From: a virus
Virus genome (UHGV): UHGV-1615994
Strand: one strand, 5' to 3'
Length of the DNA: 12,323 nucleotides
A program made the translations under genes and the position numbers. Position 1 is the stretch's first letter, and each line of letters opens with the position of its first letter. Below the pieces are notes generated by a model, which searched no databases, had not been told where the DNA came from, and was given only the letters and a program-made list of their open reading frames with translations. Below are positions 1 through 10,185 of the stretch, piece after piece.

Positions 1-114
1 CCTTATGCATGATTTTGCATCCATTTTTTATTTTATTTTTTGGGGGGCGCATTAGGCCCGATATGGTTTTTGGAGACGATGCGTTTGCATCAAAACAGCC
101 CCATGAAGCGGGCG

Positions 115-133
115 GGCGAGGCGGGGAAAGCAC
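115..133. other. cos: Phage cohesive-end site (cos), 19 nt GGCGAGGCGGGGAAAGCAC
   Basis: Exact 19-mer at 115-133 matches the P2 cohesive-end sequence as I recall it. It sits about 170 bp from the 3' end of Q, as expected for the P2 left end. Recalled, not searched. Confidence 0.6.
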
Positions 134-275
134 TGCGCGCTGGCGGTGGTGCTGATTTTATTTTTTCAGCGTCTGAGCGCGTCGTGATGGCGTTTAGATT
201 GTGCGCCGGGGCGTTGGTGTGTCTGCGGGGTGTTTTGTGCGGTGGTGAGCGTGTGAGGGCGTGATGGCGGGTTGT

Positions 276-297
276 AAAAAAGCCGCCCGCAGGCGGC
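276..297 (-). terminator. Intrinsic terminator of the P-Q operon
   Basis: Perfect 6-bp GC stem (282-287 GCCGCC, 292-297 GGCGGC) with 4-nt loop, followed on the minus strand by a run of six T (plus-strand A at 276-281). It lies a few nt downstream of the Q stop codon (303-305). Confidence 0.55.
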
Positions 298-302
298 GAT
301 GT

Positions 303-1337
303 TCAGCCGTTGTCAGTGTCCAGTGAGTAGTTTTTAAAGCGGATGACCTCCTGACCGAGCCAGCCGTTTATTTCCCGAATCCTGTCCTGTAACGGGATAA
401 GCTCATTGCGGACAAAGACCTTTGCCACTTTCTCAATATCACCCAGCGACCCGACGTTCTCCGGCTTGCCGCCCATCAACTGAAAGGGGATGCGGTGCGC
501 GTCCAGCAGGTCAGCGGCGCTGGCTTTTTTGATATTAAAAAAATCGTCCTTCGTTGCCACTTCACTGAGCGGGATAATTTTAATGCCGTCGGCTTTCCCC
601 TGCGGGGCATAGAGAAACAGGTTTTTAAAGTTGTTGCGGCCTTTCGACTTCACCATGTTTTCGCGAAGCATTTCGATATCGTTGCGATCCTGCACGGCAT
701 CAGTGACGTACATGATGTATCCGGCATGTGCGCCGTTTTCGTAATACTTGCGGCGGAACAGCGTGGCCGACTCATTCAGCCAGGCAGAGTTAAGGGCGCT
801 GAGATATTCCGGCAGACCGTACAGCTCCTGATTAATATCCGGCTCCAGCAGGTGAAACACGGAGCCGGGCGCGAAAGGTGTCGGCTCGTTGAAGGACGGC
901 ACCCACCAGTAAACATCCTCCTCCACGCCACGACGGGTATATTTGGCCGGTGAGGTTTCCAGTCTGATGACCTTACCGGTGGTGCTGTAACGCTTTTCCA
1001 GAAACGCATTACCGAACACCAGAAAATCCAGCACAAAGCGGCTGAAATCCTGCTGGGAAAGCCACGGGTGCGGGATAAACGTTGAAGCCAGAATATTACG
1101 TTTGACGTAAATCGGTGAGCTGTGATGCACGGCAGCACGCAGGCTTTTTGCCAGACCGGTAAAGCTGACCGGTGGCTCATACCATCTGCCGTTACTGATG
1201 CACTCGACGTAATCCAGAATGTCACGGCGGTCGAGTACCGGCACCGGCTCACCAAAGGTGAATGCCTCCATTTTCGGGGCGCTGGCGGTCATTTTTTTTG
1301 CCGCAGGTTGCGGTGTTTTCCCTTTTTTCTTGCTCAT
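303..1337 (-). CDS. Q: Portal protein (P2 gpQ-like), 344 aa
   Basis: Track ORF of 344 aa, same length as P2 gpQ. ATG at 1335-1337 with GGAG about 10 nt upstream on the minus strand; the start overlaps the stop of P by 1 nt. Position next to cos and the large terminase fits the P2 map. Confidence 0.93.
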   Translation of the reverse strand: MSKKKGKTPQPAAKKMTASAPKMEAFTFGEPVPVLDRRDILDYVECISNGRWYEPPVSFTGLAKSLRAAVHHSSPIYVKRNILASTFIPHPWLSQQDFSRFVLDFLVFGNAFLEKRYSTTGKVIRLETSPAKYTRRGVEEDVYWWVPSFNEPTPFAPGSVFHLLEPDINQELYGLPEYLSALNSAWLNESATLFRRKYYENGAHAGYIMYVTDAVQDRNDIEMLRENMVKSKGRNNFKNLFLYAPQGKADGIKIIPLSEVATKDDFFNIKKASAADLLDAHRIPFQLMGGKPENVGSLGDIEKVAKVFVRNELIPLQDRIREINGWLGQEVIRFKNYSLDTDNG

Positions 1338-3109
1338 CAGTAAAACTCCAGAATGGTGGATGTCAGCGGGGTGCTGATACCGGCGGTGAGTGGCTCATTT
1401 AACAGGGCGTGCATGGTCGCCCAGGCGAGGTCGGCGTGGCTGGCTTCCTCGCTGCGGCTGGCCTCATAGGTGGCGCTGCGTCCGCTGCTGGTCATGGTCT
1501 TGCGGATAGCCATAAACGAGCTGGTGATGTCGGTGGCGCTGACGTCATATTCCAGACAGCCACGGCGGATAACGTCTTTTGCCTTGAGCACCATTGCGGT
1601 TTTCATTTCCGGCGTGTAGCGGATGTCGCGCGCGGCGGGATAGAACGAGCGCACGAGCTGGAACACGCCGACACCGAGGCCGGTGGCATCAATACCGATG
1701 TATTCGACGTTGTATTTTTCGGTGAGTTTGCGGATGGATTCCGCCTGGGTGGCAAAGTCCATGCCTTTCCACTGGTGACGCTCAAGTATTCTGAATTTGC
1801 CACCGGCCACCACCGGCGGTGCCAGCACCACGCATCCGGCGCTGTCGCCACGGTGTGACGGGTCGTAACCAATCCATACCGGGCGGGAGCCGAACGGATT
1901 CGCGGCAAACGGCGCATAGTCTTCCCATTCTTCCAGCGTGTCGACCATGCAGCGTTGCAGCTCCTCGAACGGGAACACCGACGCCTTGTCGTCAACAAAT
2001 TCACACATGAACAGGTTTTTAAAATCGTCGGCGCTGTTTTCGCGTTTAAGCTGCTCAATGTCGAACAGCGTGCAGCCACCTTTCAGGGCGTCCTCAATGG
2101 TGACAATCTGCCGCCACTGGCCGTCCGCACAGAGAAGCCCACCGGCAAGGGCGTTATGACTGACGTCGATTTCCACGCGTTCGGCGGCGCTGGCGCGTCC
2201 CCGGTTGAACAGTTCACCCGACCAGAACGGGTAGGCGTCGTGCGCCAGCGTGGACGGGGTGGAGAAATAGGTCGAGCGCAGGTGACTCTGTGAGGCCATA
2301 CCTGATGCCACCTTACGCAGCACCTGAAAATTCGGGATCCAGAAAATCTCGTCGACGTACAGGTCGCCGTTATGGCTCTGTGCGGTGTTGGAGTTGGTGC
2401 CGAGAAAAATCAGTTTTGCGCCGTTATTGCCCAGGACAATCGGGTCACCGGTCAGGTCAACGTCAACCAGCCGGGCAAAGGCGATGATGTATTCGCGGAA
2501 CACATACGCCTGCGTTTTACTGGCCGACAGAAAAATCTGGTTATGACCGGTTTTCAGGGCGCGCAGCAGCGCCTCGCGGGAAAAATAAAACGTCGCGCCA
2601 ATCTGGCGGGATTTCAGGATATCGCGGATGCGGTGCTCAAGCCCGGCGCGATACCAGTGCAACTGATATTCGAAAGACTGCTCAAAGAAAATCTGCTCCA
2701 GCTTTTCGATGGCCTCGTCACTGAAAAAATTCTTTTTCGGTTTGCGCCGCCCGCCTTTGTTGCGGTTAGCGACGTTCGGATTAAGGTCTGCCTCGTTGCC
2801 GGTCTGGCTGTAGCGGTTTACCCGTGCCAGTCGTTCAATCTGGCGTCCCAGCAGGTCAATTTCCTTGAAGTCACCGCCGGTTTTCTGCGGTTTGATGATG
2901 AGCTGGGTCAGCCGCGCTTCCAGACTCATTTCGACACGGCTGATGGGGGCAACGCTGTCCCAGCCGTCGCGCTGTTTCCAGCTCTGCACCGTCGGGCGTT
3001 TCATCTGCAACATGGCGGCAATCTGCGGCACGGAAAACCCCTGCCAGTACAGCAGCGCCGCCTGACGACGCGGGTCGTGTAAAAGAGTGGTGTCTGTGGT
3101 GATGGTCAT
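1337..3109 (-). CDS. P: Terminase large (ATPase/endonuclease) subunit (P2 gpP-like), 590 aa
   Basis: Track ORF 1337-3139 opens at a TTG. The internal ATG at 3107-3109 (MTITTDTTLLHDPRRQ...) has a GAGG Shine-Dalgarno and gives 590 aa, the P2 gpP length. An HTH-like segment (GFSVPQIAAMLQMKRPTVQSWKQR) is present near the N-terminus. Confidence 0.93.
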   Translation of the reverse strand: MTITTDTTLLHDPRRQAALLYWQGFSVPQIAAMLQMKRPTVQSWKQRDGWDSVAPISRVEMSLEARLTQLIIKPQKTGGDFKEIDLLGRQIERLARVNRYSQTGNEADLNPNVANRNKGGRRKPKKNFFSDEAIEKLEQIFFEQSFEYQLHWYRAGLEHRIRDILKSRQIGATFYFSREALLRALKTGHNQIFLSASKTQAYVFREYIIAFARLVDVDLTGDPIVLGNNGAKLIFLGTNSNTAQSHNGDLYVDEIFWIPNFQVLRKVASGMASQSHLRSTYFSTPSTLAHDAYPFWSGELFNRGRASAAERVEIDVSHNALAGGLLCADGQWRQIVTIEDALKGGCTLFDIEQLKRENSADDFKNLFMCEFVDDKASVFPFEELQRCMVDTLEEWEDYAPFAANPFGSRPVWIGYDPSHRGDSAGCVVLAPPVVAGGKFRILERHQWKGMDFATQAESIRKLTEKYNVEYIGIDATGLGVGVFQLVRSFYPAARDIRYTPEMKTAMVLKAKDVIRRGCLEYDVSATDITSSFMAIRKTMTSSGRSATYEASRSEEASHADLAWATMHALLNEPLTAGISTPLTSTILEFY

Positions 3110-5272: not shown

Positions 5273-6016
5273 ATGACGAGTCCCGCACAGCGCCACATGA
5301 TGCGGGTCTCGGCAGCGATGACCGCGCAGCGGGAAGCCGCCCCGCTGCGACATGCAACTGTCTATGAGCAGATGCTGGTTAAGCTCGCCGCAGACCAGCG
5401 CACACTGAAAGCGATTTATTCAAAAGAGCTGAAGGCCGCGAAAAAACGCGAACTGCTGCCGTTCTGGTTGCCGTGGGTGAACGGCGTGCTGGAGCAGGGC
5501 AAAGGTGCACAGGATGACATTCTGATGACGGTCATGCTGTGGCGTCTGGATACCGGCGATATTGCCGGTGCGCTGGAGATTGCCCGTTATGCCCTGAAGT
5601 ACGGTCTGACCATGCCGGGTAAACACCGCCGCACCCCGCCGTACATGTTCACCGAGGAGGTGGCGCTTGCGGCCATGCGCGCTCACGCTGCCGGTGAATC
5701 TGTGGATATCCGCCTGCTGACGGAGACCCTTGAACTGACCGCCACGGCTGACATGCCTGATGAAGTGCGCGCAAAGCTGCACAAAATCACCGGTCTGTTT
5801 CTGCGTGACGCTGGTGATGCCGCCGGTGCGCTGGCTCACCTGCAACGTGCGACACAGCTCGACTGTCAGGCAGGCGTCAAAAAAGAGATTGAACGACTGG
5901 AGCGGGAGCTGAAACCGAAGCCGGAGCCGCAGCCCAAAGCGGCCACCCGTACCCCGCGTAAGACCCGGAGCGTGACACCGGCAAAACGTGGACGCCCGAA
6001 AAAGAAAGCCAGTTAA
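5273..6016 (+). CDS. M: Terminase small (DNA-recognition) subunit (P2 gpM-like), 247 aa
   Basis: 247-aa ORF starting 4 nt after the N stop, GGGAG Shine-Dalgarno upstream. Ends in a basic, proline-rich tail (KPKPEPQPK...PAKRGRPKKKAS). Confidence 0.92.
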   Translation: MTSPAQRHMMRVSAAMTAQREAAPLRHATVYEQMLVKLAADQRTLKAIYSKELKAAKKRELLPFWLPWVNGVLEQGKGAQDDILMTVMLWRLDTGDIAGALEIARYALKYGLTMPGKHRRTPPYMFTEEVALAAMRAHAAGESVDIRLLTETLELTATADMPDEVRAKLHKITGLFLRDAGDAAGALAHLQRATQLDCQAGVKKEIERLERELKPKPEPQPKAATRTPRKTRSVTPAKRGRPKKKAS

Positions 6017-8608: not shown

Positions 8609-9038
8609 TGCCGTCACGGTGCTGAAAACCAGTCCAGAGATGCTGCGGATATTCGTGGATAACGGGAGTATTGCCTCCACACTGGCGACGTCGCTGTCAT
8701 TCGAAAAGCGTTACACGCTCAATGTCATTGTGACCGACTTTACCGGTGATTTTGACCTGCTCATCGTGCCGGTGCTGGCGTGGCTGCGGGAAAATCAGCC
8801 CGACATCATGACCACCGACGAAGGCCAGAAAAAGGGCTTCACGTTTTATGCAGACATCAACAATGACAGCAGCTTTGATATCAGTATCAGCCTGATGCTG
8901 ACCGAGCGCACGCTGGTCAGTGAGGTGGGCGGCGCGCTGCATGTGAAGAATATCCCGGAACCCCCGCCGCCGGAGCCGGTCACCCGCCCGATGGAGCTTT
9001 ATATCAATGGCGAACTGGTGAGTAAGTGGGAGGAATGA
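8571..9038 (+). CDS. R: Tail completion protein R (P2 gpR-like), 155 aa
   Basis: 155-aa ORF; length and position match P2 gpR. Its stop is TGA at 9036-9038. Confidence 0.9.
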   Translation: MLKPDSLRRALTDAVTVLKTSPEMLRIFVDNGSIASTLATSLSFEKRYTLNVIVTDFTGDFDLLIVPVLAWLRENQPDIMTTDEGQKKGFTFYADINNDSSFDISISLMLTERTLVSEVGGALHVKNIPEPPPPEPVTRPMELYINGELVSKWEE

Positions 9039-9153: not shown

Positions 9154-9483
9154 GTGATGGCACAGAAAGCCCCGGACGGCACACCCTACGCGCCACGCCA
9201 GCAGCAGAGCGCCAGAAAAAAGACCGGTCGCGTTAAGCGAAAAATGTTTGCGAAACTTATCACCAGTCGTTTTTTGCATATCCGCGCCAGCCCGGAACAG
9301 GCATCAATGGAGTTTTACGGCGGGAAGTCACCGAAAATCGCCAGTGTGCATCAGTTTGGTCTGTCGGAAGAAAACCGGAAAGACGGTAAGAAAAGTGATT
9401 ATCCGGCGCGTCCCCTGCTCGGCTTTACCGGTGAGGATGTGCAGATGATTGAAGAGATTATCCTGGCTCACCTCGACCGTTAG
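9154..9483 (+). CDS. S: Tail completion / virion morphogenesis protein S (P2 gpS-like); canonical start only at 9154/9157
   Basis: Track ORF of 109 aa from GTG 9154 (ATG 9157). The same frame is open from 9022 and the upstream codons read like protein sequence (NEFKRFEHRLPGLIESLSPSGRRRLSAELAKRLRQSQQRR). A start at 9031 would give 150 aa, the length I recall for P2 gpS, but 9031-9033 is AGG. True 5' end uncertain; see findings. Confidence 0.7.
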   Translation: MMAQKAPDGTPYAPRQQQSARKKTGRVKRKMFAKLITSRFLHIRASPEQASMEFYGGKSPKIASVHQFGLSEENRKDGKKSDYPARPLLGFTGEDVQMIEEIILAHLDR

Positions 9484-9549
9484 TTGTGCCATTCCTGACA
9501 CCTCATCGTCACATTGCCGCCGGTATGACCCGGCGGCATCCTTCCCGTT
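9484..9549 (+). promoter_or_regulatory. Late promoter region upstream of the V-W-J-I-H operon
   Basis: 66-bp non-coding gap between S and V; in P2 a late Ogr-dependent promoter precedes V. Only imperfect dyads seen (TGT-N10-ACA at 9485-9500; TGT-N12-AGA at 9438-9455 inside the S 3' end), so the site is not pinned. Confidence 0.4.
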
Positions 9550-10185
9550 ATGAACACTCTCGCAAATATTCAGGAACTCGCGCGCGCACTGCGCAACATG
9601 ATTCGCACCGGCATTATCGTCGAAACCGACCTTAACGCCGGTCGCTGCCGTGTGCAGACCGGCGGCATGTGCACCGACTGGCTTCAGTGGCTGACCCATC
9701 GTGCCGGGCGTTCGCGCACATGGTGGGCACCTTCCGTGGGGGAACAGGTGCTGATTCTGGCCGTGGGCGGTGAACTCGACACGGCGTTCGTTCTGCCGGG
9801 GATTTATTCCGGCGATAACCCCGCGCCGTCTGCGTCGGCGGATGCCCTGCATATCCGTTTCCCTGACGGGGCGGTGATTGAGTATGAACCCGAAACCAGT
9901 GCACTCACGGTAAGCGGAATTAAAACGGCCAGCGTGACGGCTTCTGATTCTGTTACTGCCACGGTGCCGGTGGTCATGGTGAAAGCATCAACCCGCGTCA
10001 CCCTGGACACACCGGAGGTGGTCTGCACCAACAGGCTGATTACCGGCACGCTGGAAGTGCAGAAGGGCGGGACGATGCGCGGCAACATTGAACACACCGG
10101 CGGTGAACTCTCATCAAACGGTAAGGTACTGCATACCCATAAACACCCCGGCGACAGCGGCGGCACAACCGGGAGTCCTCTATGA
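9550..10185 (+). CDS. V: Baseplate central spike protein (P2 gpV-like), 211 aa
   Basis: 211-aa ORF, the P2 gpV length. C-terminal HTHKHP motif followed by a Gly/Ser/Thr-rich tip. Confidence 0.92.
   Translation: MNTLANIQELARALRNMIRTGIIVETDLNAGRCRVQTGGMCTDWLQWLTHRAGRSRTWWAPSVGEQVLILAVGGELDTAFVLPGIYSGDNPAPSASADALHIRFPDGAVIEYEPETSALTVSGIKTASVTASDSVTATVPVVMVKASTRVTLDTPEVVCTNRLITGTLEVQKGGTMRGNIEHTGGELSSNGKVLHTHKHPGDSGGTTGSPL

Follow-up and report, generated by a model that had tools for sequence, protein, structure and literature searches.

Cos sites of the P2 family and the locus studied here

In lambda, cos is arranged as cosQ-cosN-cosB, in which a nicking site is flanked by repeated protein-binding elements, and the cohesive 5' overhangs reseal after infection. 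Lambda packages concatemers; P2, according to what Pruss and Calendar and Bowden and Modrich are said to have found, packages monomeric circles. P2 integrates via attP, which is located between ogr and int, far from cos. Because attP is far from cos, cos is intact within every P2 prophage. The joined P2-type cos junction is textbook biology and already known. The sequence GGCGAGGCGGGGAAAGCAC has been given as the 5'-extruding cohesive end of P2-related phages (PMC3931495), and a 55-bp conserved cos core of the P2 family has been credited to Ziermann & Calendar 1990 (PMC5694545, PMC9594776, PMC3931495). It has also been reported that a hypervariable cargo hotspot of P2-like phages adjoins cos (PMC9122126; Rousset et al. 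2022).

Here we analysed a stretch of 12,323 nt, which is called the window in its full length. The window almost certainly contains an intact cos of a P2-like phage (Peduovirus), in which the right end (1-114) is joined to the left end (115 onward), and this copy is probably an integrated prophage in an enterobacterial chromosome. The whole window is ~98% identical to P2-like phages over 12.2 kb, and its genes are arranged as in P2: the minus strand has Q and P, and the plus strand has O, N, M, L, X, Y, K, lysA, lysB, lysC, R, S, V, W, J and I.

P2 cos (AF063097 / NC_001895) has the same 19-mer, lies at the same place by the Q terminator and is followed by the same gene order rightward. Over positions -29 to -1, counted from the top-strand nick, window 86-114 (TGCATCAAAACAGCCCCATGAAGCGGGCG) matches the last 29 bases before P2 cosR (TGCATTAAAACCGCCCCGTGAAGCGGGCG) at 26 of 29 positions. 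P2 also has TGCAT boxes upstream and one at -29, as does the window, but the two are unrelated upstream of -36, where P2 has old and tin. P4 (NC_001609) shares the 19-mer and the core from -36 to +26 with the window, with TGCAT at -123, -111, -101 and -29, and it differs in having psu on the left, gop on the right and no structural genes. Phage 186 (NC_001317, Eganvirus) has the same architecture, by the portal gene, and the same TGCAT box positions. However, its cohesive end, GGCGTGGCGGGGAAAGCAT, differs from that of the window at two positions, and therefore the window is of the P2/P4 type and not of the 186 type. Lambda and the window share the logic of the site without sequence similarity. 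The overhang is 12 nt in lambda and 19 nt in the window, and relative to the nick lambda has its R sites towards the left end and the window has its boxes towards the right end.

The cohesive end and the proposed packaging mechanism

The 19-nt cohesive end of the P2/P4 type, GGCGAGGCGGGGAAAGCAC, is located at 115-133 (+). It is the single match in the 12,323-nt window, even when up to three mismatches are allowed, and none of 200 dinucleotide-preserving shuffles of the window yielded it. Every letter agrees with both cohesive ends annotated in phage P2 AF063097.1, namely 'cosL; left cohesive end' (1-19) and 'cosR; right cohesive end' (33575-33593). The first-pass annotation had placed a 19-mer here, preceded by 114 bp of contiguous sequence, and had assigned it to cos of the P2 family. 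Its coordinates were all correct, and the assignment agrees with the P2 cosL/cosR annotation and with the published P2 cohesive end. A megablast search of 50,697 phage records revealed that the first base of the linear records of P2, Wphi, fiAA91-ss, HQ103, L-413C and others corresponds to window base 115. In phage and prophage records with an internal cos, the alignment is unbroken from ~86 over the 19-mer into gene Q, and this supports the earlier proposal that the right end is joined to the left end at 115. It is thus almost certain that window ~1-140 is a genuine joined, uncut P2-type cos site. The site fixes the physical ends of the phage for annotation, with base 115 as the left end and base 114 as the right end. 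Such junctions are routine: complete E. coli genomes have one in more than 40% of cases.

The mechanism proposed for this site is established P2 biology. P2 terminase, which consists of gpP and gpM, both encoded in the window, would recognise cos on circular phage DNA and nick the top strand at 114/115 and the bottom strand at 133/134. These putative nick positions are based on the P2 cosL/cosR annotation and on the record of phage 186, which is annotated 'top strand cut at 5' end and bottom strand cut at 3' end'; judged by sequence, this copy of cos is predicted to be cleaved by terminase. One genome length would be packaged, so that virion DNA would begin with 5' single-stranded GGCGAGGCGGGGAAAGCAC and finish at base 114. 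After infection, the 19-nt 5' overhangs would anneal and be ligated, and the junction would be restored. The array of boxes (-109, -99 and -29 here) may be part of terminase recognition.

The right end and the 55-bp core

We built a profile from 74 non-redundant right ends; their source was IMG/VR loci with the exact 19-mer. In this profile, a block of exactly 55 bp is conserved, from -36 to +19 (window 79-133). The right-end half of the cos core (-36 to -1, window 79-114, +) is defined by the consensus of the 74 right ends and by the P2 alignment. The consensus is aTGCAaCTGCATTAAAACCGcCCCATGAAGCGGGCG, and the window agrees with it at 31 of the 36 positions before the nick. The final 29 bases of the window before the nick are identical to those of three IMG/VR loci (L019, L040 and L078). 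Window 79-90 is a near-palindrome, ATGCG-TT-TGCAT, and CCCCATGAAGCGGGCG is also found within 79-114. Between the upstream boxes and the core lies a variable spacer (21-78), in keeping with the low information content of the profile from about -95 to -40. A T-rich tract with a G run, TTTTTTATTTTATTTTTTGGGGGG, is present at 24-47, where the T-rich tract had been pointed out before.

No alignment was obtained between window 1-85 and the right terminus of either P2 or 186, and megablast found no match to these bases in the phage collection (50,697 records). Among 5,426 complete E. coli genomes, only one, that of strain PSS-08-2, covers window 1-85, and window 1-164 is 100% identical to the PSS-08-2 prophage. 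When genome_contigs, viral_contigs and metagenome_contigs were searched with a 40-mer of bases 21-60, no exact match was found. The first-pass annotation had regarded 1-114 as the extreme right end of the phage genome. This claim is right, but the BLAST comparison with P2 and 186 that it proposed would succeed for 86-114 only, not for 1-85.

TGCAT boxes upstream of the nick

TGCAT occurs three times in window 1-114, with starts at 6, 16 and 86, which correspond to -109, -99 and -29. At least three copies in 114 nt are rarely obtained by shuffling (p = 0.0005). The first box (6-10, +), within ATGCAT at 5-10, begins 109 bases before the top-strand nick and corresponds to the -111 box of P2, P4 and 186. 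The second belongs to TTTGCAT at 14-20 (+; TGCAT at 16-20, offset -99) and is the counterpart of the -101 box. It had been noticed earlier that TTTGCAT forms a direct repeat at 14-20 and 84-90. These positions are right, and the repeat extends to 13 nt (9-21 vs 79-91, 85% identity). The TTTGCAT pair alone is at chance level, because some exact 7-mer repeat was found in 28.5% of shuffles of bases 1-114 (p ~0.29), yet the boxes are conserved in position among relatives.

When the ends of the P2, P4 and 186 references were joined, each had TGCAT at -123, -111, -101 and -29, in DNA that is otherwise unalignable. The same pattern was observed in the 74 right ends of the profile: TGCAT is present at -124 to -120 in 47, at -111 (+/-1) in 58, at -101 (+/-1) in 61 and at -29 in 69 of them, and ATGCA is present at -36 in 43. 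When the set was enlarged slightly, two or more exact boxes were found between -132 and -92 in 66 of 76 right ends; the mean for control stretches was 0.07 boxes. The dominant box-to-box spacing is 10 bp, and it is likewise 10 bp in the window. The same box offsets were found in Klebsiella Kp4852-2 and ST147-VIM1phi7.1, Enterobacter ENT4, a 186-type E. coli phage and Ralstonia RSY1. In the window and in PSS-08-2, the two upstream boxes are 2 bp nearer to the nick than in P2, and PSS-08-2 is without the -123 box. The boxes from about -123 to -101 are outside the published 55-bp core and ~72 bp from the -29 box. This conserved spacer of ~72 bp suggests DNA wrapping or looping. Box positions were also noted across window 5-20 and 79-90, in L001, L124, L137 and L138-L142, and in IMG/VR loci L004-L123.

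The transcript of P2 old-tin starts ~150 bases left of the nick, and this prompted us to consider the boxes as the promoter of a leftward cargo operon. However, P4 and 186 keep the boxes at places that are not followed by a leftward gene, so that a shared promoter role is unlikely, and we rejected this reading. The common factor among the elements that carry the boxes is the packaging machinery of the P2 family. The TGCAT boxes are candidate terminase recognition sites, to which gpM or the N-terminal helix-turn-helix of gpP might bind. A further idea, which we put forward as a speculation with a rather small chance of being right, is that the boxes constitute a distinct, little-described, family-wide terminase recognition module, between whose elements the DNA is free to vary, with the window as a natural variant that has a 2-bp shift. 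If this were true, the packaging signal of the P2 family would reach ~125 bp into the right arm in the form of spaced boxes and would be common to P4 satellites, which bears on the design of minimal P2/P4 cosmids and on how satellites copy the packaging signal of a helper. In the open-access literature, no paper joining TGCAT, cos and terminase was found.

The cargo hotspot next to cos

Homology of the window to other P2-like phages ends at about base 85, and relatives have varied cargo at the same position. On this comparison of sequences, window 1-85 is the putative edge, on the cos side, of the variable cargo hotspot that separates gene A from cos. Base 1 of the window marks the edge of the hotspot, and defence systems are usually located there, just outside the window. 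PSS-08-2 carries an integrated P2-like prophage, whose int adjoins the host gene cpxP, ~8 kb left of the junction. From gene A to cos, this prophage has a ParB/Srx-like gene, a hypothetical gene and a DNA cytosine methyltransferase. From the identical junction in PSS-08-2, we infer that the hotspot would be positioned left of the window in this copy too.

Across 14 contigs, the cargo types at this place were protein kinases, SIR2 with DUF87, a SacI-type restriction-modification pair, AAA_13, reverse transcriptases/retrons, and ParB_N with a methylase. The cargo between Q and gene A in relatives (L003 2286-6141; L125-L134 and L143-L146) differs each time and includes two protein kinases and AAA_15. 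In four of these loci (L132-L134 and L146), the genes resemble the ParB/Srx-methylase set of PSS-08-2, and the stretch matching window 1-84 differs in sequence.

Origin of the joined cos

The start codon of gene S, at 9031-9033, is AGG, whereas it is ATG in 15 of 15 relatives. Further on in the same frame, the first of ATG, GTG and TTG to occur is GTG at 9154 (codon 42). The AGG could be a sequencing error; as an inactivating mutation it would fit a decaying prophage, and this is a weak indication. Apart from this start codon, the P2 genes in the window are all intact and full length.

It had been proposed that the window is a prophage or a circularised copy. This is the right pair of options. 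The junction is real and the 19-mer single, and two other origins can be set aside. The junction could be an artefact if the 19-mer were there by chance or if the ends of a linear GenBank-style record had been pasted together, and linear P2 records do repeat the 19-mer at both ends; nothing else speaks for it. End-to-end pasting (e.g., of AF063097) gives two tandem 19-mers, and the window has one, so it is not a pasted record. The shuffles, none of which gave a match, and the same single-copy junction, which recurs thousands of times among complete E. coli genomes, also stand against an artefact. This origin is refuted by the single 19-mer, the shuffles and the E. coli genomes, and we give it practically no weight. 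The cos could also come from a P4-like satellite or from an engineered cosmid with a P2/P4 cos fragment, because P4 has the identical 19-mer and the matching core from -36 to +26. However, P4 departs from the window after +26, and the window continues with an unbroken 12 kb of P2 structural genes (~98% identity) and has no vector or P4 genes. The sequence right of base 140 refutes such an origin, which is extremely improbable.

Between the remaining two options, a prophage is favoured with good confidence over a circular copy. No att site, integrase or host gene is present within the 12,323-nt window. The att sites are expected ~8 kb left and ~25 kb right of it; in relatives, int is located by cpxP (PSS-08-2) or with host genes including yegR and yegS. 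Of 5426 complete E. coli genomes, 2252 contain similar sequence (3081 places on chromosomes and 17 on plasmids), as do 140 phage records. The 14 contigs mentioned above, which were fetched by identical gpQ or gpP, are all from cellular-genome or metagenome assemblies and have P2 early genes and varied cargo by cos; most of them also show int, often with host genes. Both proteins are widespread (7,759 index blocks for gpQ and 26,576 for gpP). The best identity to the full window anywhere is ~98%, and none of the 14 contigs is above ~98%. The window could also be a phage record or assembly, that is, circular replicative DNA or a closed virion assembly, in which cos is internal by numbering only. 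About 25 of 74 phage records matching bases 1-300 indeed have an internal junction (Peduovirus P2 OU784746, 9W, PhiR44_1, STYP1 and pro483), and the intact, full-length P2 genes of the window, except for the S start codon, are in line with this. On the other hand, the collections searched contain more than 20 times as many chromosomal prophage copies as phage records, the only sequence sharing bases 1-85 is an integrated prophage, and loss of the ATG of S, an essential tail gene, is unexpected in a plaque-forming isolate. A phage record or assembly is therefore unlikely.

The leader and the genes right of cos

A conserved non-coding leader extends from cos to the end of gene Q (134-281), with 92-98% identity among P2-like relatives. 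It begins with TGCGCGC at 134-140, which in the form YGCGCGC is common to P4, 186 and RSY1. A 1-nt indel relative to PSS-08-2 at base 165 argues against coding in the leader. The Rho-independent terminator 3' of gene Q (tQ) is located at 282-297 (-), as GCCGCCTGCGGGCGGC followed by TTTTTT; P2 tQ is annotated at 160-181, which corresponds to window 274-295. Gene Q (303-1337, -) encodes the portal protein, as shown by Pfam Phage_portal and the P2 annotation. Gene P (1337-3109, -) encodes the large terminase with an N-terminal helix-turn-helix, and its full-length translation matches Pfam Terminase_5, HTH_23, Terminase_6N and Terminase_6C. The small terminase subunit is encoded by gene M (5273-6016, +; Pfam Phage_term_smal, E = 2.5e-48). 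Cos is in cis with the terminase genes P and M, and next to the portal gene Q.

An ORF of 74 aa runs across cos at 40-264 (+), and some deposited phage records annotate it as 'hypothetical protein'. We rejected it as a gene: no family was found above threshold, its 5' part is hypervariable, and in the closest relative a 1-nt indel disrupts its frame. The ORF is probably an artefact of annotation. A promoter scan of window 1-400 found none.

Directly right of the cohesive end, at 137-162 (+), there is a weak hairpin that resembles a terminator, with a T run after it (GCGCTGGCGGTGGTGC TGATTTTATT). This hairpin is kept among P2-like relatives, though neither in P4 nor in 186. It could prevent transcription from passing over cos into Q antisense, or it could be part of the left side of the packaging signal. 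The leader also has exact direct repeats at 143-151/239-247 (GCGGTGGTG) and 183-192/260-269 (CGTGATGGCG), which may be chance matches. Farther right, between S and V (9485-9550), the window is without an insertion of ~0.8-0.9 kb that is present in the P2 reference and several prophages (L132-L134 and L144). This is a known variable spot, and the insertion has a 261-aa ORF on the opposite strand and is presumably P2 orf30.
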